This document shows positions 691-59,965 of a stretch of DNA of 64,000 nt, in pieces. Position 1 is the stretch's first letter. Each line of letters opens with the position of its first letter. The position numbers were made by a program, and so were the translations under genes. Below the pieces are notes generated by a model. That model worked only from the letters and a program-made list of their open reading frames with translations, was not told where the DNA came from and did not search any database. This stretch comes from an uncultured Acidobacteriota bacterium (GTDB lineage Bacteria > Acidobacteriota > Vicinamibacteria > Vicinamibacterales > 2-12-FULL-66-21), in contig CAVWLB010000010.1 in NCBI GenBank assembly GCA_963755695.1, forward strand, positions 1,196,328-1,260,327, given 5' to 3'.

Positions 691-890
691 ACTGCAGACT
701 GAAGATTGAAGATTGAAGATTGGGATTGCAGAGTGAAGACTGAAGATTCGGATTGAAGACTGAAGATTGGCGATTTGGATTGTGAGTGCCGATTGAAGTC
801 GCCAATCTTCAATTGGCAATCGTCATTCCCAATCTTCAATCGCCAATCTTCAGTAACCAATCTTCAATCTTCAATCTTCAGTCTTCAGTG
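691..890. repeat. inverted arrays of degenerate GAAGATT/GAAGACT heptamers forming a ~90-bp imperfect hairpin
   Basis: Left arm ~691-798 (tgaagattgaagattgaagatt...). Right arm ~803-890 is the reverse complement (aatcttcaatcttcaatcttca...). Fills the spacer between convergent genes and overlaps the stop at 885-887. Confidence 0.85.
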
Positions 891-1307
891 TTGAGAGCCT
901 CCTGCTTCGCGCGCGCCGGGGCGGATCTTGACGTCCGTGGCGCCCACTGCGATCGTCTTGTCCTTCCTCTTGATCTTGAACTGGACGCGGTAATCGCCCG
1001 AGGTCTGGAAGATCTTCGAGGCGATGAAGTGGCGCTTGATTTCGCTCTTGCCTGCCTCGTACGGATCGCAGTCGAGGGTCTCTTCAGAAATCGTTCCGTC
1101 TCCCCACTCCCACTCGATTTCTGGACAATAGAAGTCTGCGTAATCGTTCGCGCCCCCTTTGAGGTCGGCGGTGACGATGACGCGGGCGGGGGAGAACGCG
1201 ATGACCGGAGACGCTTTGACGGAGATGTTCGGCTTGTCCTTATCGGCAGCACCGGCCGCGACCGGCAGTAGCAGCGCGATGGCCAGCGACAGTGAGAATT
1301 CCCTCAT
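885..1307 (-). CDS. hypothetical exported protein
   Basis: 140-aa ORF with a signal peptide (MREFSLSLAIALLLPVAAGAA) and SD GGAGGT 7 nt upstream of the ATG. Confidence 0.65.
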   Translation of the reverse strand: MREFSLSLAIALLLPVAAGAADKDKPNISVKASPVIAFSPARVIVTADLKGGANDYADFYCPEIEWEWGDGTISEETLDCDPYEAGKSEIKRHFIASKIFQTSGDYRVQFKIKRKDKTIAVGATDVKIRPGAREAGGSQH

Positions 1308-1348
1308 GAAAGTACCTCCGCAAAGGCTCAGAAGTCATTCTAGCAGAC

Positions 1349-1354
1349 TATAAT
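1349..1354 (+). promoter_or_regulatory. -10 box TATAAT 8 nt upstream of the pepA ATG (leaderless-type arrangement)
   Basis: gacTATAATtccatcacATG; no SD between box and start. Confidence 0.4.
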
Positions 1355-1362
1355 TCCATCAC

Positions 1363-2877
1363 ATGCCTCGTACCCTTCAATCGTCAGCCGTGCGGCTTTT
1401 CGCCGGGTCACCGGCACAAGTGGACGTCGATCTCCTTTTCGTCCCTCTCTTCGAGGGGGAACCAATAGCCGACAGCCTGAAAGGTCTCGACGCCGCGACG
1501 TCCGGCGAAGTCACCCGCGCGGTGACCTCAGGAGAACTCAAGGGTCGCCCCTACGATTTCTTCGTCACCCCGGTGATTTCCGGATGGAAAGCGCGGCGGG
1601 TCGCGCTCGTCGGCGCTGGCAAGGCCGGCGATTTCACGCTGGATCGCCTGCGCAAGGTTGCCGCCGCCGCGGCGATGACGGCGCGCCAGAAGGGGGTCGG
1701 CCGGGTGGCTTTTCTCGAGCGAGGCGGACTCGATGGGCCGGCCGCCGTCCAGGCGATCGCGGATGGGCTGACGTTGTCGGCCTTCAGCGCGGATCAGTAC
1801 AAGACCGGGGAACGCCTCGGGCCGCCGCCCGCAGAATTTACCGTCCTCGTGCCCCCCGATCGAGGGACGTCGATCCGCGAGCTGGAGGCGGCGGTCGAAC
1901 GCGGGTGCGTGCTCGCTGAGTCGTGCAACATCGCGAAAGCGCTCTGCAACGAGCCGTCGAACGTGCTCACCCCGCGTGAGTTCGCAGAGCGAGGCGCACG
2001 GATCGGGCGCGAGGCCGGGCTGGCCGTCGACATTCTCGACGAGCACCAGATTGGGCGGCTCAACATGGGGCTGCTGCTCGGAGTCGCTCGCGGAAGCGCG
2101 GAACCCCCTCGTGTCATCGTGCTCAAACACGAACCGGCAGGCGCACCGGCCGCTCCGGTCCTCGGCCTGGTGGGGAAGGGCATCACGTTCGACACCGGCG
2201 GCATCTCGATCAAGCCAGCGGACGGCATGGAGCGGATGAAAGACGACATGGCCGGCGGCGCCGCGGTCATCACCGCCATGCGCGCCATCGCGCTGCTGCG
2301 CGCGCCAATCAAGGTCGTCGGCGTCGTCCCGGCCACGGAAAACATGCCGGGCGGCAAAGCGGTCAAGCCTGGCGACGTGTTGAGGGGGGCGAGCGGCAAG
2401 ACCGTCGAGGTGATCAACACCGATGCAGAAGGACGCCTGGTGCTGGGCGATGGGCTGTGGTACGCGCAGCAACTTGGCGCCACCCATCTCGTCGATGTCG
2501 CAACCCTCACCGGCGCGTGTGCCGTCGCGCTCGGTCGCGCCGCATCGGGTCTGTTTGGCACGCCCGACACCTGGGTACAGTTCGTTCGCGACACCGCCGA
2601 CCGCGCCGGCGATCGCTGCTGGCCGATGCCGCTCTTCGAGGAGTACGCCGAGCAGCTCCGCAGCGAAATCGCCGACATGATGAACTCGGGTGGCCGTCCG
2701 GCCGGGGCCTGCACGGCGGCGATGTTCTTGAAGGAGTTCACGGGCGGTCTGCCATGGGCCCATTTCGACGTCGCCGGCACGGCGTGGGCAGACGAGACGA
2801 AACCCTATCAGTCGAAAGGGGCGACCGGAATTGCGGTGCGCGCGCTCGCGGAGCTTGCGCTGGCTATGAAGCCGTAG
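1363..2877 (+). CDS. pepA: leucyl aminopeptidase (M17 family)
   Basis: 504-aa ORF with M17 hallmarks VGKGITFDTGGISIKP and NTDAEGRLVLGD. Confidence 0.93.
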   Translation: MPRTLQSSAVRLFAGSPAQVDVDLLFVPLFEGEPIADSLKGLDAATSGEVTRAVTSGELKGRPYDFFVTPVISGWKARRVALVGAGKAGDFTLDRLRKVAAAAAMTARQKGVGRVAFLERGGLDGPAAVQAIADGLTLSAFSADQYKTGERLGPPPAEFTVLVPPDRGTSIRELEAAVERGCVLAESCNIAKALCNEPSNVLTPREFAERGARIGREAGLAVDILDEHQIGRLNMGLLLGVARGSAEPPRVIVLKHEPAGAPAAPVLGLVGKGITFDTGGISIKPADGMERMKDDMAGGAAVITAMRAIALLRAPIKVVGVVPATENMPGGKAVKPGDVLRGASGKTVEVINTDAEGRLVLGDGLWYAQQLGATHLVDVATLTGACAVALGRAASGLFGTPDTWVQFVRDTADRAGDRCWPMPLFEEYAEQLRSEIADMMNSGGRPAGACTAAMFLKEFTGGLPWAHFDVAGTAWADETKPYQSKGATGIAVRALAELALAMKP

Positions 2878-2879
2878 CC

Positions 2880-3046
2880 ACAGAACAAGCGCAGGCCACT
2901 GAAAACACGGAAGAACACGGCAAAGAAGACAGAACACGCGGCAAGAGGACAGAAAGACAGGGAACCCCACTCTCTCTGTGTCTTTCGTGTCTTTTGTGTC
3001 TTTGTGTCCTCTGTGTTATTCAGTGTTCTTCTGTGGCCCTGATCTG
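2880..3046. repeat. inverted arrays of GAACACG/GACAGAA-type units (long imperfect hairpin)
   Basis: Left arm 2880-2966 (cacagaac..ggaagaacacggcaaagaagacagaacacg..). Right arm 2972-3046 is its complement (ctgtgtctttcgtgtcttttgtgtc..gttcttctgtgg). Starts 3 nt after the pepA stop. Confidence 0.85.
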
Positions 3047-3066
3047 CCTGTTCAGGAGTGCGGTGG

Positions 3067-3321: not shown

Positions 3322-3340
3322 ACGCTTGCGTCGGGCACAG

Positions 3341-3434
3341 GGGCTAGCAGCTGGGAGCTAGGAGTTAGGAGCTGGAGTAAACCTTCTCATTATCGATCTA
3401 GCTCCCAGCTCCCAGCTCCTAGCCCCCAGCTCCT
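3341..3434. repeat. inverted arrays GCTGGGA/GCTAGGA versus TCCCAGC/TCCTAGC
   Basis: Arm 3341-3377 (gggctagcagctgggagctaggagttaggagctggag), 20-nt loop, arm 3398-3434 (ctagctcccagctcccagctcctagcccccagctcc). Overlaps the amidase stop. Confidence 0.85.
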
Positions 3435-5223
3435 ATTGCTCCGTCGCCCTTTTGGACGCAATCACTCGCATCCGCTTCAGGCCCTGCTGGTAGTTGACGA
3501 CGGCATCGAGGAGCGCCTGCGCGATCTGCTGACGGTAGGCGCCGGTTTTGAGCAGCGCTCCCTCCTGCCTGTTCGTGAGGAAGGAAATTTCCGCCAGCAC
3601 GCTGGGCATGCTGGCGCCGATGAGCACCACAAACGGCGCCTGCTTGACGCCCAGATCGCGGAGCTGCTTGTTGCGTGTCTTCAGCCGCGCGACCATGGCC
3701 TTCTGCACGATGTCCGCGAAATCGCGCGACTCGTTGATCTTGTTGTTGAGCGCAATCGCCTTCACGATGTCCGGCAAGCTGTGCATCGTCTGACCCGAGC
3801 CCGAGTTCTCGCGCGCTGCGACCGCTTCGGCTTCGGGATTGTTCGCGAAGTTGAGGAAATAGCTCTCGATACCCCTCGCCCTTGGGTTGGGGCTGGCATT
3901 GGCGTGGATTGAAAGAAACAGGTCAGCTGCCTCGCGGTTGGCGATCGCCGTTCGCTCCTGAAGCGGAATGAACTCGTCGCTATCGCGGGTCATGACGACT
4001 TCGACGCCGGGCTGTTTCGCTAACAGCTTCTGCAGTCGAAGCGCCACATCGAGCGTCAGCTCCGCTTCATTGATTCCATGCCCCTGTGCGCCGGGATCGT
4101 GCCCGCCGTGCCCAGCGTCGATGACGATGCGAGAGACGCTCAGGCCGAGCTGGCGGGAGATCGAGAATTTTCCGTCGGAGTTCGCGATTGGGGCCGCCGG
4201 TGGAAGCGACGGAGGGGTCCGCTCGATCGACGGCAGCGGCGTCTTGTCGATCCCAGGTGCCGGCACGGGCGTTCCGATTTCAATCTTTGGCGCCGGCGGT
4301 CGAGGGGCCGGCAGGGACGCGACGAGCGGCGGTGGCGATGCCGCCACCGGTTTCATCGCCCCGGACCTCCGGAAATCCATTATCAGCCGGTACGGGTTGT
4401 AGAGCGAATACACGCTGTAGCCGTCTACGCCTGACAGATCGACGACGATCCGCGTGGTGCTTTGCGGGTGACGTCCCAGACGGATCTCGCGGACGACATC
4501 GTCGTCGAACTTCAGCGTGACGTCCTGGAGTGCGGTGACGGCACGAACCCCCTTGAGATCGAAGAAGACGCGCTTCGGACGCTCGAGTTCCTCCTGGTGA
4601 AACGGGACCTCGGCGTCCAGATCGATCGTCACGCGCACACCATCGGGCAGAAGCGATCGCTTGATGCCTTTCAGCATCACGACATCGGTTGAAACCGGCG
4701 CCGCATCGGATTTCTCCGGCCGCGTGCCATCCGGCTTGTCGCCGAGGGAGGCCGCCGCTTTCTCCACTCTCGCGGGCTCGCCCGCGCTTGGCTTCAGTTC
4801 CGGTGAAGACGCACGCAGAGACGTTCCTGCCGCGCTGCTGCTTTCGATGTCCTGCAGGGTCGACTCGGCCTGCGCGACGAGGCTGCTCGATGAATAGCCC
4901 TCGGCCAGCATCTTCAGGAACCGGGCGGCGTCCTGTCGGTCCTTTTCGTCGCCGGACCGATCGAAGGCCAGCAGCGCAAGGTTGGCGGCTTGCCAAAGCG
5001 CGTTGTCCGCATACCCGCTGGCCGGGTACCGCTCAACGATCTTCTCGTAAGAGCGAATGACGCGGCGGATTGCCGCAGCCGACGCGTTGTCGTTTGCGTC
5101 TCGAACCACACGCTCCTGCCCGAGCGCGCGCGTGTACGCGGTACGGGCGGCGTCGGCTGCACGAGCGGGCACCGGCACGAACATCAGCAGGGCCAGTAGC
5201 GAGGGAAGCAGTCGCTGTGCCAT
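3433..5223 (-). CDS. N-acetylmuramoyl-L-alanine amidase (Amidase_3) with TPR-like N-terminus and AMIN-like middle domain
   Basis: 596-aa ORF with a signal peptide and C-terminal amidase motifs (IVIDAGHGGHDPGAQG, SIHANAS, EISFLTN). Confidence 0.9.
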   Translation of the reverse strand: MAQRLLPSLLALLMFVPVPARAADAARTAYTRALGQERVVRDANDNASAAAIRRVIRSYEKIVERYPASGYADNALWQAANLALLAFDRSGDEKDRQDAARFLKMLAEGYSSSSLVAQAESTLQDIESSSAAGTSLRASSPELKPSAGEPARVEKAAASLGDKPDGTRPEKSDAAPVSTDVVMLKGIKRSLLPDGVRVTIDLDAEVPFHQEELERPKRVFFDLKGVRAVTALQDVTLKFDDDVVREIRLGRHPQSTTRIVVDLSGVDGYSVYSLYNPYRLIMDFRRSGAMKPVAASPPPLVASLPAPRPPAPKIEIGTPVPAPGIDKTPLPSIERTPPSLPPAAPIANSDGKFSISRQLGLSVSRIVIDAGHGGHDPGAQGHGINEAELTLDVALRLQKLLAKQPGVEVVMTRDSDEFIPLQERTAIANREAADLFLSIHANASPNPRARGIESYFLNFANNPEAEAVAARENSGSGQTMHSLPDIVKAIALNNKINESRDFADIVQKAMVARLKTRNKQLRDLGVKQAPFVVLIGASMPSVLAEISFLTNRQEGALLKTGAYRQQIAQALLDAVVNYQQGLKRMRVIASKRATEQ

Positions 5224-5231: not shown

Positions 5232-7671
5232 CTATCGAAGCTGCGCGTCGACTTCGTCGAAATAGTCCTTCTTCACGAGCACCTCGCGCGGCTTGCCGCC
5301 AACCGCCGCCGAGACGAGCCCGTCCATCTCCATCATGTCCACCAGTCGCGCCGCACGGCTGAAGCCGATGCGGAGCCGCCGCTGCAGGTACGAGATCGAT
5401 GCCTGGCCGCTCGAGACCACGATGCGGGCAGCCTCGTCGTACAGCTCGTCCTTCTCGAACTCGATCGCTTCCTGCGCGCCCTTCTCCTCCGCGGTAATGG
5501 TGTTGTCGTAGGTCGGCTTTCCCTGTTTCCTGAGGAAACTCGCGAGCCGCGCCGATTCCTGTTCCGAGATGTACGGACCGTGCAGGCGCACGAACCGTGA
5601 CGACGCGGGAGGAAGGTACAACATGTCGCCGCGTCCAAGGAGCTGCTCGGCGCCGTTGCCGTCCAGGATGGTACGCGAGTCGATTTTCGACGACACGCGG
5701 AATGAAATGCGCGCCGGCAGGTTGGCCTTGATGAGACCGGTGATGACATCGACCGAGGGTCGCTGTGTGGCCAGTACCAGATGGATCCCGATCGCGCGCG
5801 CCATCTGCGCCAGCCGCGCAATCGACTCTTCGACCTCGTTGCCTGCCACCATCATCAGGTCCGCCAGCTCGTCGATCAGCACCACGATGAAGGGCAGGGG
5901 TTTGATCTCGTTGCCCTTGTCGTCGGTGACCACCTCGCCCTTCTTTTCCTCCTGCATCGCACGGACGTTGCGGTTGTACTGCTCGATGTTGCGCACGCCG
6001 AACGCCGCGAGCGTCTTGTAGCGTTCCTCCATCTCGCGCACCGCCCAGCGAAGCGCGTTCGAGGCGAGCTTCGGATCCATGACCACCGGCGTCAGAAGGT
6101 GAGGGATGTCCTCGTACATCCCGAGCTCGAGGCGCTTGGGATCCACCATGATGAACCGGACCTCATCGGGGGTCGCCCGCATCAGGATGCTGGTGATCAT
6201 CGCGTTGACACTGACCGACTTTCCGGCGCCGGTCGACCCGGCAATCAGCAGGTGCGGCATCGTCGCGAGATCGCTGACGAACGGCTCGCCGTGGATGGTC
6301 TTGCCCATGGCGAGGGTCAGCTTCGACGACGACCGGCGGTAGGCATCGGACTCGAGCAGCTCCCGCAGCGAGATTTGTTCGCGGTTCGGATTCGGAATCT
6401 GGATGCCGACGGTGGACTTCCCGGGAATGCGATCGATGATCACCGACTCGGCCTGCATCGCGAGACACAGGTCGTCGGCAAGACCGGTAATCTTGCTGTA
6501 CTTCACGCCGGCGTCGGGCTTGAACTCGTAAGTGGTGACAACCGGCCCCGGATGAATCTGGACGACCGTGCCTTCAACCGAGAACTCGCGACACTTGTCC
6601 TCCAGCAAGCGCGCTCCTTCCATCAACTCGCGCTCGTCGATCTTGCGTTCGCCCCGAGGCGCGTCGAGCAGCGCATTCGGCGGCAGCGCGAACGCGCCTT
6701 TCCGGCGCTCGGCGGGAGCCTTCTCGGGCTCGGACAGCGGCAAGGTTGGGGTCGAGGTCATGGGCGCCGGCCGTTTGATCGGCGGTGGTGGCGTCGGCTT
6801 CGACGAGGCAGCCTTGAGGGCAGCCGCAGCGGCCTCGACCATCGCCGCGGTCTTGGACTTCATAGGCGTCGGAGCCGAAGACGGAGTCGACGCCTCCTTC
6901 GCAGAGCTCGATGGATCTTTCGCGGATTTCAATGAGGCCGCCTTGGCCGCGACAAGCTCCGGTGTCAGTTCGGGAACCTCCTTGAACTCCTTCGACTCCT
7001 TCGTGTCCCTGGAATCCTTGCCCGGCCGCGTCAGGTGTTTCCTCATCACCTCCTGGCGCTGCTTTTCGCGGCGGCGCTCCTCGCGGCGCGCCTCGGCATT
7101 CGCCCTCATTGCCGCCCACCGATCGTGAGCGAGATGTCCGAGCACCCCGAACAGGCGGCCGAACGAGAACTGGGTCGAAAGAATGATCGCCAGGAAGAGC
7201 AACGTCAGGATCAGGATGATCGAGCCGGTGCGATTGAGATAATCCGCCAGCACCCCGGCGAGCCAATCACCAAGATATCCGCCGACACGAAACTCCTTGC
7301 CACTGACCTGGATCGTGCCAAAGGCGAGCGACAGGAAGGACGACACGCAGCCGAAGAGCAGCACCGCCCCTACCAGCTTCGTGTAGGCGGCGTCGACCGA
7401 TCGGCACCAGAAGTAATGCCAGCCGATCACCACGAAGACCAGCGGGACCAGGTACGCTGCAGTACCCAAGTACCTGGAAGGAGAGCTCGGCGAGAAAGGC
7501 GCCGACCCGTCCGGCGAAATTCGCCGCGGCCGGCGCCGCGCCGGTGTTGAAGAACCACACCGGGTCGGACGAACTGTAGCTGGCGAGCGCGATCACCCAG
7601 ATCAGCGCGCAGGCAAAGAGCGCCACGCCCGCGAACTCGCTCACGCGCCGCGACACGGTTCTGGAGGCCAC
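5232..7671 (-). CDS. ftsK: DNA translocase FtsK, reading frame broken once as sequenced (~7462-7474)
   Basis: The membrane N-terminus lies in ORF 7267..7671 (..FAGRVGAFLAELSFQVLG). It continues in another frame as ORF 5232..7469 (GTAAYLVPLVFVVIGW..). Walker A GSTGAGKS and a gamma-domain-like C-terminus (SISYLQRRLRIGFSRAARL) are present. Confidence 0.9.
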
Positions 7672-7672
7672 G

Positions 7673-9353
7673 TCAGATCTCCATGACCACCGGCAGCACG
7701 AGCGGCCGGAGACCCGAACGTTTGCGGAAGAAGCGCTGGAGGTCCACTCGAATCTTTTCCTTGATCAACCCTGGATCGGTCCGTTCTTCGACACTGGCGG
7801 TGTCGATCGCTGCCGCTACCAGCCCCGGCACTTCCTTGAGCAAACTCTCCGTTCGCAGGTCGAGCACGAAGCCACGCGTAATCACGTCCGGCGTCTCTTC
7901 CACCAGACCAGACTGCCGGCTGATTGCCACGACCGGAACGACCAGCCCGTCGCCGGCCAGGTGACGCCGATCGCGCAGCACCTCGTCGCCGACTTCGCCA
8001 CTGCGCGTCCCATCGATCAGAATCCGGCCCGCCGGCACCTTGTCCGCAACTCGGGCGCCGTCCGGGTCCACCCGAATCACGTCGCCGTTTTCCGCGAGCA
8101 CGACCTCGGTGCCTGGAGACACCCGTGCCGCCACTCGCGCATGTCGGGCGAGCTGACGGGTACTCTCCATGTATCGGCACGAAGTACTTCGGCCGTACCA
8201 GTGACAGCATGAGCTTGAGCTCTTCCTCAGAGCCGTGTCCCGAAACGTGGACATGCTTGATGCCCTCGTAGACTACATCGGCCCCCCGGCGGGCGATGTG
8301 GTTCATCACCCGGCCGATCGCCTTCTCGTTGCCCGGGATCTCGCGCGCTGAAAACACCACCACATCGTCACGCTCGAGCTTGACGTGACGATGGTCGTCA
8401 ATCGCAATCCGTGGAAGCGCGGCCTGCGGCTCACCTTGGGAACCGGTGCAGACACAAACCACGTCCTGGGACGGATAGTTCCTGACGTCACTGTCTCGTA
8501 TCTGCACGCCCGGCGGGATCCGCAAATATCCGAGCCTGTCGGCAATCTGCGAGTTCTCGACCACTCCCCGGCCGACGAACGCGACCCGCCGGTCGAACTG
8601 AAACGCCAGATCCAGCACGATCTGCATCCGGTACAGGCTGGAGGCGAACATCGCCACCACGATACGCCCCTGGGCGCTGGTGAAGATCTCCTCGAACCCG
8701 TCGATGACGTCGCGTTCGGAACCGCTGACCCCTTTCCGCTCAATGTTCGTGCTGTCGCCGAGCAGCACCAGCACCCCTTCGGCGCCGAGCTGCGCGAGAC
8801 GATGAAAGTCCACATGCTCGCCGTCGAGCGGGGTCTGATCGAACTTGAAATCCCCAGTGTGCAGCACGACTCCGGCCGGCGTGGTGATGGCAACCGCGAC
8901 GCAGTCGGGCATGCTGTGCGTAACGCGCAGGAACTCGATCGAGAAACTCCCTACCTGCACCCGATCGCGCGGACGCACGGCAGACAGGCGTGCGCGCGCG
9001 TCTTCGTCTTCGGCGAGCTTCGGCTCGACGAGCGCGAGCGTCAGCGGCGTCCCATAAACCGGTCCATCGACGTGCGGCAGCACGTGTGCGACCGCGCCGA
9101 TGTGATCCTCGTGGCCGTGCGTCAGAATCAGCGCCTGAATCTTGTACTGCTGGAGCGGACGCAGGTCCGGGATGATCAGGTCGACCCCGAGGAGCTCTGG
9201 CTCGGGAAACATCACGCCCGCGTCGATCAGGATGGCGGTCTCGCCGCAGGCGACCACCATCATGTTCATGCCGAACTCGCCCAGCCCCCCGAGCGGGATC
9301 AGCTCGAGCGGCGGCGTTTCGGAGACACCCGTCGATTCCGGACCGTTACGCAA
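7673..9353 (-). CDS. rnj: ribonuclease J, reading frame broken once as sequenced (~8155-8165)
   Basis: Metallo-beta-lactamase/beta-CASP motifs (LTHGHEDHIGAV; KYFVPIHGEY). After HGEY the sensible continuation (RQLARHARVAA..VVMEI) is in ORF 7673..8254. The 570-aa ORF tail is Arg/Gly-rich nonsense. TTG start. Confidence 0.9.
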
Positions 9354-9472
9354 ATGAACGAAGTCCCAGTCAAGAGGAACTAAATCTCATCGGACACGCT
9401 GCGGCGGGCGCCGCTAGGCGAGCGTATCCACCCGACCAGCGCTGGGACGATGGATCGGGAAAAATCGCTGAA

Positions 9473-9481
9473 ACTATAGCA
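9473..9481 (-). promoter_or_regulatory. extended -10 element TGCTATAGT upstream of rnj
   Basis: Minus strand reads cctgTGCTATAGTttc, ~115 nt upstream of the rnj start. The same nonamer recurs at 51759-51767. Confidence 0.35.
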
Positions 9482-9493
9482 CAGGTGGACTCG

Positions 9494-9532
9494 GGTTCTC
9501 CGGTTCTCCGGTTCTCCGGTTCTCCGGTTCTT
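9494..9532. repeat. tandem GGTTCTCC x ~4.5
   Basis: gggttctccggttctccggttctccggttctccggttc. Confidence 0.9.
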
Positions 9533-9556
9533 GTAGGGTGCGTCTTTAGACGCGCC
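9532..9556. repeat. REP-like hairpin element TGTAGGGTGCGTCTTTAGACGCGCC (copy 1 of 2)
   Basis: GC stem around a TTTA loop. Near-identical copy at 51774-51798 (tgtagggcgggtctttagatccgcc). Confidence 0.7.
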
Positions 9557-10447: not shown

Positions 10448-10846
10448 CTAGGCCTGCTCGATCGACTCGCCGCGCCAGAATTTCTCCTCAATCTCTTCGA
10501 TCTCTTCCTCGCTCATCCCGAAGTAGTGGCCGAACTCGTGGATCACGGTTTCAGCGATGCAGTCGCGAATCTCTTCCTCGTCGGCGCACGCCTCTTCGAT
10601 CGGTCGTTGATAGATCGAAATGCGATCCGGGAGGCTGTTGCCGTAGCCCCATCCGCGCTGCGTGAGCGGCGTGCCGTGATAGAGACCGAACAGCGTATCC
10701 CCCTCGTCGATCTCCATTTCCTCGAGGATGTCCGGCGATGGTTCTTCTTCCACCACGACGGCCACGTTGCGCATCGCCTTTCGAAACCGTCGCGGAATCT
10801 CACGGAGCGCTTCCTCGACCAGCACAGTGAAGGCCTCGCGCGTCAC
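10448..10846 (-). CDS. zincin-like metallopeptidase family protein (DUF1025-type)
   Basis: 132-aa acidic protein with an HExxH motif (VIHEFGHYFG). SD AGGAGG upstream of the GTG start. Confidence 0.75.
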   Translation of the reverse strand: MTREAFTVLVEEALREIPRRFRKAMRNVAVVVEEEPSPDILEEMEIDEGDTLFGLYHGTPLTQRGWGYGNSLPDRISIYQRPIEEACADEEEIRDCIAETVIHEFGHYFGMSEEEIEEIEEKFWRGESIEQA

Positions 10847-11571
10847 CGTGCCCTCCTTGGCTTCAGGCTTCGGGCTGCAGGCTTCAAGCTTCGGGTTTCA
10901 TTCTTCACACCGGCAACCTTGCGCGGACGGGTGACGACCCCAAGCACGCTTCGGTAGTAGCTGCAATCGTCGCGAACGACGCATCGATCGCAGAGCGGCT
11001 TCGGCTTGCAGATTCGGCGGCCGTGCAGGATCAGGGTATCGGAGGTCAGCGTCCAGTGCTTCGGCGGCATTGCCGCACACAGCTGTTGTTCGACGACCTC
11101 AGGATCATCGGACTTCGCGATGCCGATCCGGTTCGACACGCGGAGCACGTGACGGTCTACCGGAAGGCCTGGCACGCCGAGGGCATGACCGAGGACCACG
11201 TTCGCCGTCTTGCGGCCGACGCCGGGGAGTCCCGTGAGATCTTCCATCCGCGGCGGGATCTCTCCTCGGTACCGCTCCACGACCACCTTGGCCATTCCAA
11301 CCAGCGCCTTCGATTTCATGCGGAAGAAGCCGGTCGACTGGATCTGCGGCTCGAGTTCGTCGGTGCTGGCCGTCGCAAGCGCCCGCGGGTCGGGGTAGCG
11401 CTTGAACAGCGCCGGCGTCACCTGGTTCACCCGTTCATCAGTGCACTGCGCCGAGAGGATCGTGGCGACGAGCAACTCGTACGCGTTCGAGTAGTGCAGC
11501 TCGGTATCCGCATTCGGGTGCTGCTTGGCGAGCTTCTTGATGATCGCGCGCGTCTCGGCTCGCGAGGGCAT
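10843..11571 (-). CDS. nth: endonuclease III
   Basis: HhH-GPD (LTGLPGVGRKTANVVLG) and Fe-S cluster (CKPKPLCDRCVVRDDC). Start placed at MPSRAETRA; the ORF-track extension to 11640 reads through a repeat arm. The ~35-aa C-terminal tail is encoded by a heptamer array. Confidence 0.88.
   Translation of the reverse strand: MPSRAETRAIIKKLAKQHPNADTELHYSNAYELLVATILSAQCTDERVNQVTPALFKRYPDPRALATASTDELEPQIQSTGFFRMKSKALVGMAKVVVERYRGEIPPRMEDLTGLPGVGRKTANVVLGHALGVPGLPVDRHVLRVSNRIGIAKSDDPEVVEQQLCAAMPPKHWTLTSDTLILHGRRICKPKPLCDRCVVRDDCSYYRSVLGVVTRPRKVAGVKNETRSLKPAARSLKPRRAR
10859..10898. repeat. GGCTTCA/GGCTTCG/GGCTGCA heptamer array inside the nth 3-prime tail
   Basis: ggcttcaggcttcgggctgcaggcttcaagcttcgggtttc; translated on the minus strand as ..SLKPAARSLKP.. 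Confidence 0.75.
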
Positions 11572-11593
11572 GAGGGTATTGTAGGGGATTCTC

Positions 11594-16007: not shown

Positions 16008-16009
16008 AA

Positions 16010-16072
16010 GGCTTCGGGCTTCGGGCTTCGGGCTCCGGGCTCCGGGCTCCAGGAGCCTGAAGCCTGAAGCCC
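16010..16072. repeat. heptamer arrays GGCTTCG x3, GGCTCCG x3 followed by the complementary GAAGCCT units
   Basis: ggcttcgggcttcgggcttcgggctccgggctccgggctccaggagcctgaagcctgaagccc; starts 3 nt after the stop at 16007. Confidence 0.85.
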
Positions 16073-49321: not shown

Positions 49322-49335
49322 CGGCGGACGGTAAC

Positions 49336-49374
49336 GGGGTCTGACCCCGGGGTCTGACCCCGGGGTCAGACCCC
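49336..49374. repeat. three tandem copies of the self-complementary 13-mer GGGGTCWGACCCC between convergent genes
   Basis: ggggtctgaccccggggtctgaccccggggtcagacccc; candidate bidirectional terminator. Confidence 0.8.
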
Positions 49375-49379: not shown

Positions 49380-51750
49380 TCACCGTCCCGGCTGCACGGC
49401 GCGGACTTCGACCAGCCCTCCGGTGCGCGCGGTGCCCTGCGGCTGGAACCGTACCGTGACCCTCGATTTGCCGCGCGTCAGCCCCTCGGGAACCTGGTAT
49501 TCCTTGTCGAGCAGTTCGGTCGGGTGGTATTCGAGGCTCTCGGTGGCGATCTTCTCGCCGTCGACGAGGACGTCGAATACGCGCTGCTGACCTTCGCTGC
49601 CGCGATACGTACAGACGAGGGTGAGCGGCTTATCTGGCTGGACCTTCAGCTCGTAGCTGAGGAAGCCGTCGTGAGCGTCGCGCCAGCGCCGTCCTTCCAC
49701 GAACCCCTCGTCCGCTCCTTCGCTCTTGAACGCATGCGCCCGCTCGCTCGCATCGTCGTTCACGTTGACGGTATCGATGGTTCGTCCCTCGATGTCCTTG
49801 CGGCGGGCCGCTGCACGGGCGAGGTCTGCCTTGTACTTGTCGTATTCCGCCCGCGTGTAAATCGTCCAGTAGACCGTGTAACGCGGATCCATGGTCTTGT
49901 AGAGCGGCATCAGGGTGACGTCGTGGGGCTCGGCGAGACCGTCGGTCTGGAACGTCAAGGGCTTGCCCGCAACCGGCTTCACACGATCGAGCACCTGCTG
50001 CGGCGTCGAGGCGATGAATACCGGAATCGGTATCGACGTCAGACGCCCGAGCGGCGGCGCGCTCGGACCGTAGCGGCGGACCGCGTCGAGGCCGGCGGTG
50101 CCGAGATCACCGGCGAGGACGACTGGACCGTACATCAGCGCCTGAACGTGCGGATCATCGGGAAGAGACTCGAGGTGGAGCGACATCGGCAACTTGATCT
50201 GCATGCTGTCGCCCGTCTTCCACTCGCGCGTCACGTCGATGTATTGGCCGGGTTTCGCTGCGGCAGTTTCCTGCGATTTGCCGTTGACGGTCAGCGTCAT
50301 CCCTGACGTCGCCCACGATGGATAGCGCACTCTGACCGCGAGGCGCAGGGGCTGGTCCACCGTGAAGGTGAGGGAAGTCGAGTCTCCTTCCGGGAATTTC
50401 GTCAGCTGCCGGACCTTCACTCCCATTTCCTTCCAGGTCAGCTCGGAGGGGACGAACAAATTCACGTAGAGCGCGGCCGCATCATGAAAGTAAATCGTGT
50501 CGTTGTACTTGGCATGGTTCTCCATGCCGGTACCGACGCAGCACCAGAACGAATCGTTGGCCGTCGAGAATGTCTTGAACGCGCCAGGCTTGAGCGGGCA
50601 GTAATAGAGCACGCCGCCGGTTTTGGGATCCTGCGACGCGAGAATGTGGTTCAGCAGCGCGCGCTCGTAGTAGTCCATCATGTCGGCCGACGGCGACCAC
50701 GCGAACAGGTGGCGCGTCAGCTTCAGCATGTTGTAGGTGTTGCAGGTCTCGGGGCCCGACGTCCCGAGATGGTGCGACGTTTCCTCCTCAGGAAAGAACG
50801 ACTCGTCGTCGCTGTGGCCGCCGATCACGAACGATCGGTGATGGACGACCCGGCTCCAGAAGAAGGTGGCGATGTCGCGATAGCGGGGATCGCCGGTCAG
50901 CTCGTACTCGCGGGCGGCGCCGATGATCTTGGGAATCTGGGTGTTCGCATGCACGTTGTCGAGCGGATCGACGCCACGAGCGAGCGGATCGAGGATGCGT
51001 CGGTGGTCGAATTTCTTCGCGGTCTCGAGATACTTCGGCTCGCCGGTGACGGCGTAGAGGTTGGCGAGCACTTCGTTCATCCCGCCGAACTCCGTGTCGA
51101 GCGCCTTCTGTTGCTGTTCGTCGGTCAGGCGGCCGACGCGGAACTTGACCCAGTCCGCCTGCTTCTTCAAAACGTCGAGCGCCTGCTGGTTTCCGGTCAG
51201 CAGGTTCGCGTCGAGCAGCCCCGCCATGATCTTGTGAATCGTGTAGTACGGCGCCCAGACCCGCCGGCGCGAGTCGACGCGGTCGAAGAGTTCTTCAGGA
51301 AAGGCAGAAAGGTAGCCCGGATTGAACGTCTTCGCCTCGGCGGCCTGCACCTTCGCGAGCTCCGCGACGAGGCTGTCGGCGCGTGCCTTGAACCTCGTGT
51401 CGCCGGTGCTCGCGTACATGATCGAAACCGCGGACAGGTAGTGGCCGACCGAGTGCCCGCGCAGTTCGACGTCCGGCGCCTCCCACCCGCCGAGCGGCTG
51501 CGCGGACGAGGGAAGGCCGGCGGTGACGCGGAAGTTGTGGAGCAGGCGATCCTGGTCGAGGCTGAGGAGATATTCCTCATCGCGGATCATCGCGTCGCGG
51601 TAGGGACCGTCGAGGAGCCGGACGTCCTCGAGTTTGAACGGTACTGCCTTCGATGGGACTTTGTCGGGCACCGACGCCTTGGTCCAGGTACTGCCGACCT
51701 GCGGCCGCCGCGACGCAAAACACCGCCACAGTCAGCGTCAAGATCCTCAT
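49380..51750 (-). CDS. GH127-family (DUF1680; possibly GH146) glycoside hydrolase, frame broken in the signal peptide as sequenced (~51675-51720)
   Basis: 763-aa ORF (..ELRGHSVGHYLSAVS..). An ATG at 51750 encodes MRILTLTVAVFCVAAAA in a different frame from ..GSTWTKASVPDKVPSK. Confidence 0.8.
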
Positions 51751-51773: not shown

Positions 51774-51798
51774 TGTAGGGCGGGTCTTTAGATCCGCC
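51774..51798. repeat. REP-like hairpin element (copy 2 of 2)
   Basis: tgtagggcgggtctttagatccgcc, compared with 9532-9556. Confidence 0.7.
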
Positions 51799-53582: not shown

Positions 53583-53589
53583 CGCACCG

Positions 53590-53735
53590 GCCGAGTTGTT
53601 CTGACGCGGTGCCGGCTCATGGCTCGTGATTCAGGGCTCATGCCGGCGGATGACCATGGACCTAGCCGTTGTCGCCATAGACCACCTCGAGTTTTGAGTC
53701 ATGAGCCTCGGGCCCGAAGGTTGGAGCCCGAAGCC
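53590..53735. repeat. GCTCATGG/GCTCAGGG-type arrays with complementary units
   Basis: ggctcatggctcgtgattcagggctcatgccgg .. gagtcatgagcctcgggcccgaaggttggagcccgaagcc. Confidence 0.6.
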
Positions 53736-56700
53736 TATTTCTCGTCCAGCTTTCGGCCCGCGTCAAGGTTGTCGAAATTCAAGAGCGTGTTGAACACGAG
53801 GAAATAGCTGCCCTGCGTCTCCCCCCGCCAGATCGGATTGTTCGAGAACATGACGACGTGTCCCTTGTCGACGGGGACGTCGATCACCATCGGGCGTTGA
53901 GCGAGATCCGCGCCGTTATCGAGAAGTCCCGAGACGAGGAGATCCCGCGCGTCCCCGTAGCGCAGGACGACGCGCGGACGGAAGCGCGGGGGAATGATGT
54001 TGGTCGCATTGCGGCGCTGCTCGTCCTGAATCGGCGCAAACTGCCAGGCCTCTGCACGCGGCTCGTCGGGAAGGGGAGCGGTTGGACTGAATCCCTGCAC
54101 CTGATCCGGGTCGTCGGGTGTCCCACGCCCAGTGGCGCGACGCTGGGCCTCATCGCCGCCGCGGCGTCCGCCGCCGGCGCCGCCAACGCGAGCACTCACA
54201 CCGAAGATCGGCGGATTGTCCGCATAGATCGAGAGGTCGTCGCCGTAGCCGTAGGCGATCGGGCTGGCCGCGTCCACCGTCTTCGATCGAAGCACCGAGC
54301 CGACGACCTTCAAGCGCTGCGACTCGGTGGTCGAGACGCCCGGTGCGAAGCCGAACTGCTGCGCGAACTCCGCCGTGTCGTCGACCACGATCAACACGCC
54401 GCCATCGGAGACGAACTTCTGCAGGTGGATCAACCCCTCCCAGCCCATGCCGGGACGGATGTCGTCGGTCGAATCCTCCTTGCCGATATTCGGCGTCAGT
54501 TCCGTTGTCTTCCACGGGATCGGATTGCCGTACATCGGCATGCCCGTGATGATCTGTTGCGCGGATGCGCGTCCGACGGGCGGGAACAGGATGACGTCGT
54601 ACTTCGATTTCAGATCCCCCTCCTGCCTGAGCGCCTGCGTGCTGATATAGGTGAAGGGCACGCCTCGAAGGTCGAGTGTTTGCCGCCACCAGCCTTCGTC
54701 CTGGGTGTTGATCCACGTGTGGAGGAGGGCAACCCGCGGCGTGCGGCCGGGATGCGTTGTCACGTTCGGAGCGGACGCAAGCGCGGTCACCTTGATACCG
54801 AGATCCGACGCGGCCTTCCGGAGATCGTCCGAGCTGACCCCCTGCACGATGAACGACCCGCGGCCGAATTTCTGTCCGCCGGCCTCGAATCCCTCTTCGG
54901 CGATGTCGAACTTCGCGTCCTTCAAGCGATAGCGCAGCGTGATCAGCGCCGGCTCGCTGTTGTGGTTAATGGCGAATACGGAGCCGCTGCCGGAGACACC
55001 ACCGCCGGCCTTGACCTCTCCCCTGACGGCTTCAACCTTGGCATCGAGCACCTTCACGTCGGTCACTCGCGTGACCTTCACGTTGAACAGCTCGGGGAAC
55101 GTCCACCCGGTGTCGTCGTAGGGCTGGCGCTGCGGGTCGTCGGGCGCCCAGGTACCTGATAATCGAGCAGCGCGTCGGCGATCCGGCTGAACGGCTGGTC
55201 CATCCGAACGATGAAGGAACCGGCCGGAAAGGTGCGACTCTCCGACGGCGACGCGGCGGTGCGATCGTTCTTCTGGCCTTCCTGCGAGTCCTGGCCAGCC
55301 TGCGAATCTCCCCCTCCATTCGAGCCGCCACGGTCCGCCGACGTCTCAGTCGTGTTGCTCGGACGTTTGGGCCGGCGCGGACCCGGCACCGAAACCGTGA
55401 ACGGCTGCGTCGCACGCGAAATCTCGACCTTTTGCATCTGCAGAATGCGCAGCAAATCCGCCTGTGCGCCTGGCCGCGGATCGTCGCCGGCAAACACATA
55501 CGCCGCCGGCCCTTCGGTCTGCGGCTTGAGGATCGATCGCTTGCCCTTCAAATAGAAATTCTTGAGAAAGTACTGCGCGTTGTCCGCGAACTGATTCAGC
55601 GATACGAGCAGACCGGTCTCCTGGTAATTGTTGTTGTTGCGTTGTGACCACTTCGTCTTCGGTAAGGGAGGGTTCTGCCGGTACCAGGTGCGTGAGGTCT
55701 GCGACGGGGGAAGCGTCCGCTCGAGCGTGTCGGCGCCGCCATTCCCGAAGGTTTCGTAGAGCCGGCTGATGCCGTTGTGCATCGCGGCAATGAACATCAG
55801 ATAACCGGGGGACCAGGTATCGAAGGTACCGTGAGTGAACACGCCCGGCATGCCGAACTTGGTCATCTCGTTGACGTTGTGCCAGCCGATCATCTGCCAT
55901 TCGCTGGCGAGAATGGGATCGATCCAGGCGTTGTACGGGCCGTCACCGACCGTGTTGTCGTACAGATAGGGCACCGACTCGTGGAGATCGTGGATCACTT
56001 GCGCGTGCCAGTCGACGTAGGTGTTCAGCACGTTGCGCGTCAGCGCCAGCGTGAGTCCCATCGCGTCACGATTGTTGTCGTGCGCGACGTACTTGCCCCA
56101 ATAGAGCGTGCCGGGCCAGTTCTTGTCAGGGTTGGCCAGGTGCCAGCGATACACGTCCACGTGTCGATCGCGTCCGTCCACTTCCACGATCGGCGTGACG
56201 AGGGTGATGACCTTGTTGCGGATCTTCTGGATATAAGGGCTTTCGTCAACCGCCAGCCGATATACCAGCTCCATCAGCGCGGTCGGGGAGCCGGTTTCAG
56301 GAGAATGGATCGTCCCGGTAATGTAATAGACCGGGGTCGTCGTGGCCACGATCCGGTCCGCTTCATCGTCTTTCATCTTGATGGCGCGCGGATCCGCCAG
56401 CTTCTCGAGATTGGCGCGGTTGGCCTCGAGTTTCGCGAGATTGGCTTCCGACGACACCGCGACCGCGATCATCTCGCGTCCTTCTTCCGTTTTGCCGATG
56501 GAGAAGACCTTGACCCGCGGCGTTGCGTTCTCGACCATCCGCATGTACTGGTAGACCTCGCGCGAGTACGGAAGGATGCCGGGCGCCCCGGCCACATCCT
56601 TGAGAACCGCCATTGGCGTCGGGACGGTTTTCGACGCCGGCAGATAGTCGACCAGCGGCGACGTGAAGTACGGTGCGGTCGTGTACTCCTTCATCCTGGC

Positions 56701-58013: not shown

Positions 58014-58994
58014 ATGCGTAACGGCCTGATTCTTCTTAGCCTTGTGGCGTGCGCATGTGCGGCTCCCCGCGCTGAAATGCCACTCACTATCGCCGGACGC
58101 ATCGAATTGCCCGGAGTCGAGGGACGGTTCGATCATTTCGCGTTCGATTCCGGCAGTGGCCGGTTGTTCGTGGCTGCGCTTGGCAACAACTCCATAGAGG
58201 TAATAGATACGCACGACGCGAAGCGTGTGACCTCAGTAGGTGGAGTCGACGAACCGCAGGGGCTCGGGTTCGTTGCTCCCGGCACGCTGATCGTCGCCAA
58301 TGGCGGAACCGGCGAGGTGCAGTTTCGCGAGGGAGGCGACTTGCAGGTCGCCGCCCGTCTTGAAACCGTGGGCGATGCCGATAACGTGCGGTACGACTCT
58401 GCGGCTGGGCGTGCGTACGTCGGCGTGGGCTCCGGCGCACTCGTCGCGATCGACCCCTCCGGCGCCAAAAAGATGAACGAGGTGCATCTGCCTGCCCATC
58501 CGGAATCATTCCAGCTCGAACGGACCGGCGCACGCATATTCATCAACGTTCCCAACGCCCACCAGGTTGCCGTCGTCGACCGGCAATCGATGTCGATCGT
58601 GGCAACGTGGAAGGTCACCGCCGCGGCCGCCAACTATCCGATGGCACTCGATGAAGATGCCAAGCGGCTGTTCGTGGTGTGCCGCAGTCCTGCGCGGGCG
58701 CTCGTCTACGATACGACTGGCGGCGCGCTGACCGAGTCATTCGAAACGGTCGGCGATGCTGACGATGTGTTCTGGGACGGGCGGCGGAAGCGTCTCTACG
58801 TGATTGGGGGAACGGGCTTCATTGACGTCTTTCAACAGGCGGAAGGCAACCGCTTCACGCGGGTCGCTCACCTGGCGACTGGATCCGGCGCGCGCACCGG
58901 ACTCTTCGTTTCAGAAATCGATAGGCTGTTCGTTGCCGTTCCGCACCGCGGAGAACAGCGGGCGGCAATTCTAATGTTGGAACCTCGGGACTGA
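58014..58994 (+). CDS. YncE/YVTN-like beta-propeller protein
   Basis: 326-aa ORF with a lipoprotein-like signal (LILLSLVACACA) and repeated ..G.L.V...G...V.V.D.. blades. Confidence 0.65.
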   Translation: MRNGLILLSLVACACAAPRAEMPLTIAGRIELPGVEGRFDHFAFDSGSGRLFVAALGNNSIEVIDTHDAKRVTSVGGVDEPQGLGFVAPGTLIVANGGTGEVQFREGGDLQVAARLETVGDADNVRYDSAAGRAYVGVGSGALVAIDPSGAKKMNEVHLPAHPESFQLERTGARIFINVPNAHQVAVVDRQSMSIVATWKVTAAAANYPMALDEDAKRLFVVCRSPARALVYDTTGGALTESFETVGDADDVFWDGRRKRLYVIGGTGFIDVFQQAEGNRFTRVAHLATGSGARTGLFVSEIDRLFVAVPHRGEQRAAILMLEPRD

Positions 58995-59003
58995 CCAGGC
59001 GCT

Positions 59004-59729
59004 CTACGCCCGTACCGCAGCGTTGACGAGCTGCTGGCGCCGCTCGCGCGAGAGCGTGTTGATGCCCGATTCGAGGTCGCTGACCGCCTTCGCCAGCGCC
59101 TTGCGCTCGGCACGGGTCAGCGGCGCCGGCGGCCACTCGTAAACGAAGAAGTGTCCCGACCATCCGGCTCCCGACCAGACCTGGTCGACCCAGCCGAACT
59201 CGGTGTCGACGCCGATGCATTTCCAGTCGTGCGCGCGAATCGGACGTTTCACGGATGGACGCGCCTGCCGGGCTGCGGCATCCACTTCGACGACGACTCG
59301 TTCGAAGAGAAAGTCGCGGAGCGGCGCGTCCAGCTCTTCGATCTGGCGGCACTGCTGGAGACGTGACGGAATGGCCGAGCGGGCCCGGCCTGCAGCCAGC
59401 GCGCGAGGGACCAGCACCAGACGCCGGAGCCCGACCTGAACCCGCGGGAGACCCGGAGCGTAGGCGAGATCGCTGAGACCGCGCGCATAGACGTCGGCCG
59501 CCGCGTCGAGTGCCGCGGCGCCAGCCGATGACGCGGCGATATCTCGCAGCCGCCGCCACATCGACCGTCGCGCAGCTCGTGCACGGCCGAACAGGCGAAA
59601 ACCGATCTGCTTCGCTGCTGCGCCGACGGCTTCATCGCCCGCAGGCGTCGAGACCCAAGAGTCGAAGGGCGCACGGTCGATCCGCCCTCGGTAGCGCAGC
59701 CGCTCGTCGCTGATCTGGAACCAGCTCAT
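59004..59729 (-). CDS. hypothetical protein
   Basis: Coding-like GC3 bias. Start placed at MSWFQISDERL. No family recognised. Confidence 0.45.
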   Translation of the reverse strand: MSWFQISDERLRYRGRIDRAPFDSWVSTPAGDEAVGAAAKQIGFRLFGRARAARRSMWRRLRDIAASSAGAAALDAAADVYARGLSDLAYAPGLPRVQVGLRRLVLVPRALAAGRARSAIPSRLQQCRQIEELDAPLRDFLFERVVVEVDAAARQARPSVKRPIRAHDWKCIGVDTEFGWVDQVWSGAGWSGHFFVYEWPPAPLTRAERKALAKAVSDLESGINTLSRERRQQLVNAAVRA

Positions 59730-59856
59730 ATCGGGGTCTCGTCGTATTGCGACGAACGTGCCTGCGCAATCCGACAGCAAATCGAGTGAAACCTGCCTGG
59801 ACCGCCCGACGCGAAGCGACAGAATTGTGCGGTCGAGCGCAGGACTCGTATCAGGC

Positions 59857-59965
59857 GGCTCAGGGCTCAACGCTCAGGGCTCATGCTTGCTCAAGGCCAT
59901 TAAGCCAAAAGAAGGCTCGAGACTCAGAGCTCAGAGACCATAAGCCGCCCTGAGCCCTGAGCCAT
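59857..59965. repeat. GCTCAGGG arrays with complementary CCCTGAGC units (imperfect hairpin)
   Basis: ggctcagggctcaacgctcagggctcatg .. gccgccctgagccctgagcc. Confidence 0.7.

Follow-up and report, generated by a model that had tools for sequence, protein, structure and literature searches.

Intergenic heptamer arrays of many units, often paired into hairpins, in a Vicinamibacterales chromosome and its relatives

What are the short tandem arrays that occupy spacer after spacer between genes in a 64,000-nt stretch of an uncultured Acidobacteriota genome (contig CAVWLB010000010.1, positions 1,196,328–1,260,327; hereafter the window), and what holds their period at 7–8 nt while their sequence changes? 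An earlier interpretation made from the DNA letters alone (the sequence-only reading) had described about twenty spacers built from such arrays, many of them followed by an array of the reverse-complement unit. The arrays stand and the number does not: all 15 sets of array coordinates hold and, with a further array at 10859–10900, we count 16 spacers. The pattern in the window is far beyond chance, and the observation is confirmed.

Arrays in the window and across the lineage

Tandem arrays were called with Tandem Repeats Finder (TRF), which returns period-7 or period-8 arrays at 14 window sites (696–887, 2912–3016, 3339–3433, 9490–9531, 10859–10900, 16010–16071, 16740–16820, 18976–19129, 26691–26766, 28832–28941, 30348–30383, 30532–30631, 42282–42326 and 59857–59963). 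Periodicity scored by a 35-nt sliding autocorrelation (threshold ≥0.74) gives 275 window positions at lag 7, 225 at lag 14, 46 at lag 8 and 20 at lag 13, with none above threshold at lags 4–6, 9–12 or 15. At the sites at 36630 and 53590 the periodicity is weak and folding is present. Long imperfect hairpins form at 8 of the 16 sites, with z-scores from −2.7 to −11.1 against 200 dinucleotide shuffles, energies well below those of the shuffled controls: 688–890 (z −11.1, −105.3 kcal/mol), 3330–3436 (−6.3, −61.1 kcal/mol), 16008–16075 (−5.3, −51.7 kcal/mol), 16733–16825 (−4.1), 2878–3050 (−3.9), 36629–36745 (−3.8, −64.6 kcal/mol), 59855–59966 (−3.7) and 53586–53735 (−2.7). The direct-only arrays of the window do not fold (for example, 42277–42326, 0 kcal/mol). 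All 16 elements lie outside called genes or at their edge; a stop codon falls within 9 nt of the array in 11 of them and within 3 nt in 9. Several fill convergent spacers entirely, one abuts a start codon (30532–30631) and one lies between divergent genes (26691–26766).

These properties extend to the relatives. We pooled the window with 160 related loci (labelled L001–L160, roughly 20-kb loci; 2.06 Mb in total), calling genes crudely from open reading frame (ORF) length and third-position G+C, which assigns 87% of the pooled sequence to coding and 13% to non-coding DNA. The non-redundant arrays number 176 at period 7, 45 at period 8, 9 at period 6 and 23 at period 10; periods 4–6 and 10–11 are rare, and periods 9, 12 and 15 fall mostly within genes. 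The intergenic enrichment that the sequence-only reading had proposed to test for is plain, with 135 of the 176 heptamer arrays (77%) in the non-coding 13%. A reverse-complement array lies within 250 nt of 95 of 221 arrays (43%), compared with 2 of 221 for a unit that is only reversed and 9 of 221 for one that is only complemented (1–4%). Array density is 0.80–0.85 per kb in co-directional and convergent spacers and 0.22 per kb between divergent genes, about fourfold lower.

The proposed association with stop codons, evident in the window, holds in the pooled loci too, where 48 arrays begin no more than 3 nt from a stop and 20.2 would be expected from uniform placement within each array's own spacer. 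In co-directional spacers the array starts within 3 nt of the upstream stop in 38% of cases and within 10 nt in 52%. The stop-adjacent fraction is alike in hairpin-type (45%) and direct-only spacers (51%), and stop adjacency, being independent of folding ability, is therefore not evidence for a hairpin function. At the other end, arrays fall short of the next start by medians of 15–24 nt, approximate distances because the gene calls are crude. Arrays occur in 67 of the 89 loci of at least 10 kb and are absent from the other 22, at 0.85–1.44 per 10 kb in relatives and 2.5 in the window. They are a property of the lineage.

Among the eight hairpins of the window, 691–887 pairs a GAAGAYT array (696–782) with an AATCTTC array (799–887), found by both TRF and folding; it fills its convergent spacer, beginning 3 nt after the stop of the gene at 58–687 (+) and overlapping, with its last 3 nt, the stop codon of the gene at 885–1307 (−). 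In the next convergent spacer, 2905–3035 joins purine-rich units of GAACACG/GACAGAA type to complementary TGTGTCT/TTC units (TRF periods 8, 9, 17 and 20), 27 and 31 nt from the two stops. The hairpin at 3339–3433 (TRF and folding) runs from a GGAGCTR into an AGCTCCC array and abuts the stop of an amiC-like amidase gene (3433–5223, −), while that at 16010–16071 (TRF, 96% matches), a GGCTTCG/GGCTCCG array followed by AGCCTGA units, starts 2 nt after a stop. In the spacer from the end of the 16100–16732 gene to the start of recG (16798–18966), TRF finds GTTCAMT units and then CATTGAG units at 16740–16820; L001 has a homologous hairpin there, and the spacer is just 1–7 nt long in L035 and L002. 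Three further hairpins use related units: degenerate GGCTCAW/GGCTTAG units and their complement at 36632–36742 (by folding, TRF being weak), filling a convergent spacer 3 and 0 nt from its flanking stops; degenerate GGCTCRT units with an ATGAGCC complement at 53620–53734 (by folding), abutting the stop of the gene at 53735–55081 (−); and GGCTCAG units on the left with CTGAGCC units on the right at 59857–59963 (TRF), 2 nt from the stop of the gene at 59966–60994 (−).

The eight direct arrays were all called by TRF. Five copies of the 8-mer CTCCGGTT (97% matches) stand at 9490–9531, followed by a GTAG palindrome that resembles repetitive extragenic palindromic (REP) sequences. At 10859–10900, six copies of GGCTTCA (42 nt) lie within the 3′ tail of an ORF at 10843–11640 (−), whose stop overlaps the start of the next gene; as 42 is a multiple of 3, the array may be translated as a 14-residue C-terminal extension, and the orthologous junction spans −8 to 401 nt in relatives. 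The array at 18976–19129 (CGAGGTC/CGAGGCC/CGAGATC, 9 nt after the recG stop) is the longest and has the highest copy number (22) of the entire data set. GAAGAYT units recur at 26691–26766 (TRF periods 7 and 28), in a divergent spacer between a radical-SAM gene and a CoA-binding-domain gene, and, with GACGAYT, in 16 copies at 28832–28941, 3 nt after the stop of rho (27344–28828). Two neighbours follow: the 8-mer GATTTGGT at 30348–30383, beginning at the base after the stop of a DUF4159 gene, and 14 copies of CGGACCT at 30532–30631, ending 2 nt before the start of a TPR-repeat gene. Finally, the 7/8-mer AAATCACY at 42282–42326 fills a 47-nt convergent spacer and is unstructured.

Units, turnover and arm pairing

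Ignoring rotation and strand, 171 heptamer arrays contain 103 distinct units, most of them seen once. A single cryptic motif behind all units can be rejected: a common-motif search over rotations yields 4.19 bits against a null of 3.51 ± 0.14, a weak shared preference. Runs of G3 or C3 occur in just 32% of units (21% expected), which speaks against G-quadruplexes as a common cause; nine of the 171 arrays lie within one mismatch of the Xanthomonas heptamer GGGAATC, a modest enrichment. The sequence-only reading had stated that the unit differs between loci. That there are many units is correct; that they are locus-specific is not, as 12 of the 16 window elements belong to four families: GAAGAYT (691–887, 26691 and 28832), GGCTYNG (10859, 16010, 36632, 53620 and 59857), GGTCCGA (18976 and, inverted, 30532) and the 8-mer GATTTGGT (30348 and, inverted, 42282). 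The unit of 30532–30631 is the reverse complement of that of 18976–19129, and 105 nt of the two align at 86%.

Recurrence within a genome is general. Different spacers of one genome carry an identical unit in 5.7% of pairs, compared with 0.8% between loci and 0.1% for random heptamers. The GGCTCAG family of 59857–59963 is also present in L026 and L033, and GGCTTCG occurs in both the window and L001, at different spacers. In two relatives a complete element, its non-repetitive core included, has a duplicate in another spacer (L033, 4004–4119 and 6151–6245; L105, 3308–3438 and 9600–9720), with homology that stops at the array ends. The recurrent units and duplicated elements establish that some copying between spacers occurs, besides local change.

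Within the window, the inverted same-unit pairs 18976–19129/30532–30631 and 30348–30383/42282–42326 are separated by 11.4 and 11.9 kb and share the spacer at 30.3–30.6 kb, and the GAAGAYT arrays at 26691 and 28832, in direct orientation, stand on either side of the CoA-binding-domain gene and rho. This layout may have come about by chance, or it may record copying or inversion from one spacer to another.

Orthologous sites reveal how fast the arrays change. Between the recG stop and the start of the rsmD-like methyltransferase gene (19201–19761 in the window), spacer length in the first 75 relatives runs from −1 up to 839 nt, and a strict detector identifies 19 different units there among 133 relatives. 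Many species carry an array and its reverse-complement array after recG with a unit that differs each time (GATCCCT, AGCTTCC, GTGCCTC, GCTGGTA, AATCGGA, GGTTGCC and the 8-mer AGGAGATC among them); others have a plain GC hairpin, a REP-like GTAG palindrome or hardly any spacer. The architecture thus persists while the sequence turns over, as the sequence-only reading had anticipated for orthologous spacers. Across the same 133 relatives the post-recG spacer is strongly structured (median z −3.6), compared with a median z of −0.3 for the spacer preceding recG.

Close relatives, ordered by the identity of their recG 3′ ends, capture individual steps. At 98.6% (L099/L103) one arm differs by an indel of 21 nt, or three units; at 98.4% (L074/L099) the unit differs in both arms, each retaining a remnant of the other's unit; at 98% (L063/L064) the hairpins are unrelated while the upstream spacer is identical; at 96.7% (L036/L116) the spacer has been replaced; and at 96% (L044/L100) 126 nt stand against 8 nt, presence versus absence. 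The 21-nt indel and the change of unit in both arms support the local generating mechanism that had been suggested from the window. Pooled indels, looked at for multiples of 7, give a noisy spectrum with too few clean events, the clean one being the L099/L103 indel. Turnover is very fast.

The window itself can be compared with L001, whose RecG is 92% identical. After recG, L001 has a GATCCCT/AGGGATC hairpin and the window 22 copies of GRTCCGA with a decayed right-arm remnant; GATCCGGGATCC and this remnant are common to 18976–19129 and the L001 hairpin at the same site, and a direct-only array can therefore descend from a hairpin. The post-rho spacer holds a REP doublet in L001 and the GAAGAYT array in the window, and the site at 9490 is occupied by GGCTTCG (11 copies) in L001 and by the 8-mer CTCCGGTT in the window. 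Beside these wholly different arrays, about 135 nt (9354–9488) upstream of the gene at 7641–9353 (−) are conserved between window and L001, a possible 5′ leader or RNA regulator.

The two arms of a hairpin are not strict mirror copies. Their pairing identity is 0.88 in the best register and 0.80 in other in-phase registers, and this near-equality rules out strict mirror symmetry and marks the arms as arrays of one consensus; arm lengths correlate weakly (rho 0.27, p = 0.17). In 14 of 27 inverted array pairs (window plus L014–L148) the unique centre is 44–53 nt long. The centres share no sequence and few contain a REP-like palindrome, which disposes of a conserved central core. Selection at the RNA level, looked for as G·U bias, is not detected (sense versus antisense folds 17 versus 17, p = 0.30). 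Many hairpins span the distance from stop codon to next ATG inside apparent operons.

Other candidate roles fail. Three-frame stop arrays are not indicated, as units near stops contain a stop triplet in sense in 32% of cases and in antisense in 23% (27% for random units). The sense strands of direct arrays (GAAGATT, GATTTGGT, CGAGGTC) are not C-rich, which excludes tracts of the kind used by Rho, and a universal hairpin at every 3′ spacer is contradicted by array-free 3′ spacers, of which about 20% reach z < −2 (7% between divergent genes). Canonical terminators formed by a hairpin and T run are not enriched in the window (15 observed against 12.8 expected, and 3 against 12.5) and none occurs at an array; T runs are likewise absent after the window hairpins. 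A role for hairpins that lack a U tract is therefore conceivable.

Further repeats share this intergenic DNA. A REP-like family made up of GTAG and then a GC-rich palindrome whose loop is CTTYAG (GTAGGGCGGGTCTTTAGATCCGCC and GTAGGCCCGACCTTCAGGTCGGGC are two instances) is present at window positions 9533–9556 and 51775–51798 and in L001, L002, L035, L040, L048, L054, L129, L160 and others. GTAG palindromes are intergenic in 35% of cases, against 10–17% for control tetranucleotides; these elements share post-stop spacers with the heptamer arrays and form inverted doublets after rho in L001 and after recG in L044. A plain, non-repetitive post-stop hairpin, the perfect 13-bp palindrome GTTAGCGGTGAAC ... 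GTTCACCGCTAAC at 31713–31751 (z −6.4), follows the stop of the 31346–31705 gene by 8 nt. At 49335–49374, the 13-nt palindrome GGGGTCTGACCCC occurs in three tandem copies, with the stop of a GH127 glycosidase gene (49380–51671, −) 5 nt away. The intergenic region 11625–11740 contains 4.5 copies of the 22-nt tandem repeat TCGAAGGAGCAACCAAGCCTTA, each with an AAGGAG core resembling a Shine–Dalgarno sequence, and then CGAAGGAG 8-mers.

The chromosomal setting is ordinary. At a G+C content of 62–70%, the window encodes, besides the genes already named, pepA (1363–2877), ftsK (5232–7469) and a second GH127 glycosidase (36743–39184). RecG relatives in genome and metagenome collections all belong to Acidobacteriota subdivision 6/Vicinamibacterales (top identity 92%), and the window is chromosomal DNA of the Vicinamibacterales (Acidobacteriota gp6). 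An Rfam scan of the window has a cyclic di-AMP riboswitch as its sole match (RF00379, 61.9 bits, full length; 61807–61972, −, upstream of an ORF ending at 61805), and the arrays match no curated RNA family. A near-consensus sigma-70-type promoter (TTGACA, 17 nt, TATACT) lies at 27190–27218 (+), about 125 nt upstream of rho.

How the arrays may arise and persist

We judge it moderately probable that these elements are extragenic heptamer and octamer microsatellites, driven by slippage, tolerated after stop codons and with their hairpin arms kept alike. Arrays would lengthen and shorten by replication slippage, one to four units per step, and slippage in whole-unit blocks is suggested by the 21-nt indel and by super-periods of 14, 21 and 28 nt. 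Unit variants would be born by point mutation and then sweep the array, stages of which are seen in L074 versus L099 and in the window versus L001. The space observed to be occupied, from the upstream stop to short of the next start signals, would be DNA free of constraint; expansion into it would explain both the stop abutment and the depletion between divergent genes, where the spacer is promoter throughout. Wherever an array occupies one arm of an extragenic palindrome, the complementary array is found on the opposite arm. The arms change jointly, and we infer that template switching in the hairpin during replication carries information between them, or that mild selection favours their pairing. 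Template switching of this kind is known from quasipalindrome correction in E. coli, and pairing in shifted registers together with the lack of a sense-strand advantage would favour the DNA-level route. Some unit families would also spread by copying to further spacers within a genome, in keeping with their recurrence. Because the 7-nt step is invariant whatever the sequence, it is presumably set by something that measures length and not by a sequence-specific binder, which speaks against either such a protein or G-quadruplexes as a general explanation. The resulting RNA and DNA hairpins are probably tolerated by-products, and some of them may secondarily act as 3′ hairpins.

Several points weigh against this explanation. 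Slippage alone leaves the preference for 7 over 5, 8, 10 or 11 nt unaccounted for; there is just one clean multiple-of-7 indel, the pooled spectrum being uninformative; and the start-codon distances are approximate. Selection for a hairpin could account just as well for the 43% inverted pairing and the concerted change of arms, and the structured post-recG spacer across species hints that structure is needed there. Recurrent units and duplicated cores point to a copying mechanism beyond slippage.

The strongest competitor, possible although doubtful, takes the hairpins as functional 3′-end RNA structures, either U-tract-less (bidirectional) terminators or barriers to 3′ exonucleases, in a lineage without canonical terminators, with slippage merely lengthening the stems. 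It accommodates the placement of arrays at gene 3′ ends and their fourfold rarity between divergent genes, the convergent spacers that are wholly filled, the lack of T-run enrichment in the window, the joint change of arms and the post-recG spacer that is structured in most species, whether by arrays or by plain GC hairpins. It has difficulty with direct-only arrays that do not fold and are equally stop-adjacent (42282–42326, 0 kcal/mol), with the missing G·U advantage on the sense strand and with presence versus absence at 96% identity (126 versus 8 nt). Moreover, many hairpins reach the next start within an apparent operon and leave no room for a promoter, arms of 35–100 nt far exceed what a terminator requires, and structure is found in no more than some 20% of 3′ spacers without arrays. 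The within-genome recurrence of units (5.7% versus 0.8% between loci) instead invites the idea of mobile, non-autonomous hairpins whose arms are heptamer arrays, akin to REPINs (hairpin-forming REP doublets) or miniature inverted-repeat transposable elements (MITEs) and copied by a transposase that recognizes structure. The L033 and L105 pairs, homologous through a non-array core and bounded at the array ends, suit it well, as do GGCTTCG at different spacers of window and L001, the whole hairpin exchanged between strains 98% identical in recG, and true REP-like GTAG palindromes in the same spacers. We nevertheless consider it improbable: the 103 units in 171 arrays are mostly single, no conserved termini, target-site duplications or cross-family core were found, no transposase gene was seen beside the elements (no search was aimed at RAYT, or REP-associated tyrosine transposase, genes), and the gradual drift from GATCCCT in L001 to GRTCCGA in the window better fits change in place.

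Arrays might also be bound by a protein that recognizes repeats of 7 bp, be it a ribbon-helix-helix, nucleoid or RNA-binding protein; among ribbon-helix-helix repressors, omega of plasmid pSM19035 is an example that binds arrays of heptads. The strict 7-nt spacing, the presence of both direct and inverted arrangements and the recurrence of some units in a genome agree with this, yet more than 100 units without a strong common motif, rapid turnover and loss at orthologous sites, and a position after stops and not at promoters make it very improbable. Repeats can in principle be mis-assembled, the sole consideration in favour of an artefact, which we regard as close to excluded: identical arrays appear in separately deposited, independent assemblies (the L001 metagenome-assembled genome (MAG) and the JGI contig L081; L105 and L106; L096 and L097), arrays are denser, not rarer, in loci that their record names group as long-read MAGs, and the pattern recurs in 67 of the 89 loci of at least 10 kb. 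We finally regard as rather unlikely a joint account, in which the period is inherited through a length-measuring, sequence-independent duplication at gene 3′ ends, possibly the footprint of replication or repair machinery at hairpin-stalled forks, and the hairpins could have a role. What would point to such a duplication is that over 100 unrelated units have in common the 7-nt step, the start at the stop codon and the concerted growth of both arms. One role for the hairpins is speculative: a hairpin spanning stop to start would loop out inserted DNA, bring both codons side by side and so preserve a translational coupling within operons that slippage could tune.

Relation to known repeats

The sequence-only reading set the arrays apart from REP elements and their composites, the bacterial interspersed mosaic elements (BIMEs), and from MITEs and clustered regularly interspaced short palindromic repeats (CRISPRs), a distinction that we can uphold for REP elements and CRISPRs and, less firmly, for MITEs: the elements conserve period and layout and not sequence (103 units in 171 arrays). 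REP, BIME and REPIN elements are built on a conserved sequence of 20–40 nt headed by GTAG, occur in many near-identical copies and lack internal periodicity. Those described here resemble them in being extragenic, in lying at gene 3′ ends, and in forming imperfect palindromes and doublets that fold into long hairpins, but share no sequence across families. MITEs have terminal inverted repeats, target-site duplications and multiple homologous copies; here two within-genome duplicate pairs share cores, target-site duplications and conserved termini are not evident, and most units are single-copy in the data. CRISPR repeats of 23–47 nt alternate with unique spacers of similar length, whereas the window units are 7–8 nt and contiguous. 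Intrinsic terminators likewise place a stem-loop just after a stop codon, with a GC-rich stem of 5–14 bp and a T/U tract; here there is no such tract, the arms are 35–100 nt, half of the elements are unfolded and many arrays abut the next start codon. Foldback transposons, which are eukaryotic, kilobase-scale and transposase-associated, also have inverted arms made of short tandem subrepeats, a likeness of architecture only, and analogous. Cyanobacterial short tandemly repeated repetitive (STRR) sequences are lineage-wide tandem heptamers between genes, likewise of unknown function; each genome employs a small set of fixed units, and pairing into hairpins is not characteristic of them.

The assertion that this is not a described class of repeat has to be withdrawn, because both an intergenic heptamer excess and inverted pairs of GGGAATC in Xanthomonas are already published (bioRxiv 10.1101/309039; PMC4692102). 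Heptanucleotides are the over-represented class of long simple sequence repeats (SSRs) in many bacteria, for which slippage has been proposed (Mrazek et al. 2007, as cited in PMC4692102), and Mori et al. (bioRxiv 10.1101/309039) found heptamers to be the commonest intergenic periodic repeat in some 7,000 genomes of prokaryotes and saw ‘no clear clue’ to what they do. The present lineage conforms, period 7 being over-represented and intergenic. Hairpin pairing, stop abutment and orthologous unit turnover, features of the arrays here, are not described in these surveys, that of Mrazek et al. being represented by its citation in PMC4692102. A literature search found no report of such repeats in Acidobacteriota.

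Noted as early as 2007, the heptamer excess in bacterial intergenic DNA still lacks an explanation. The arrays described here are a many-unit version of it; what sets them apart is the coexistence of many unit families, the tight stop abutment and the documented turnover. Where one G-rich unit dominates, as in Xanthomonas and Nostoc, ideas of G-quadruplexes or binding proteins are inseparable from the period. With a constant period, a unit that varies more than 100-fold and strains caught in mid-change, the Vicinamibacterales are a natural experiment that separates period from sequence, and the lineage could address what sets the 7-nt step, how the arms stay complementary and whether a 3′ hairpin acts. 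In practice, the arrays give rise to spurious ORFs and make spacers unstable, which is to be reckoned with when genomes of these abundant soil bacteria are annotated.

The closest precedent is that of Rehm et al. 2015 (PMC4692102), in which GGGAATC heptamers of Xanthomonas are 89–93% intergenic, lie on average 28 nt from the upstream ORF and much nearer to it than to the downstream one, are rare between divergent ORFs and form 70–75 convergent inverted pairs able to adopt stem-loops. Their length and sequence vary at the same gene pairs of close species, and no function was identified; the same work gives GGGGAYT as the intergenic heptamer of Nostoc and mentions heptanucleotides of Calothrix (PMC4692102). 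The arrays here share with those of Xanthomonas their position near the end of the upstream ORF, their inverted pairs and their depletion between divergent genes. In Xanthomonas a single G-rich unit, with the potential to form G-quadruplexes, predominates, whereas the present lineage has 103 units in 171 arrays with several families coexisting per genome, and its arrays, unlike those of Xanthomonas, usually begin at the stop codon itself and have a documented turnover.

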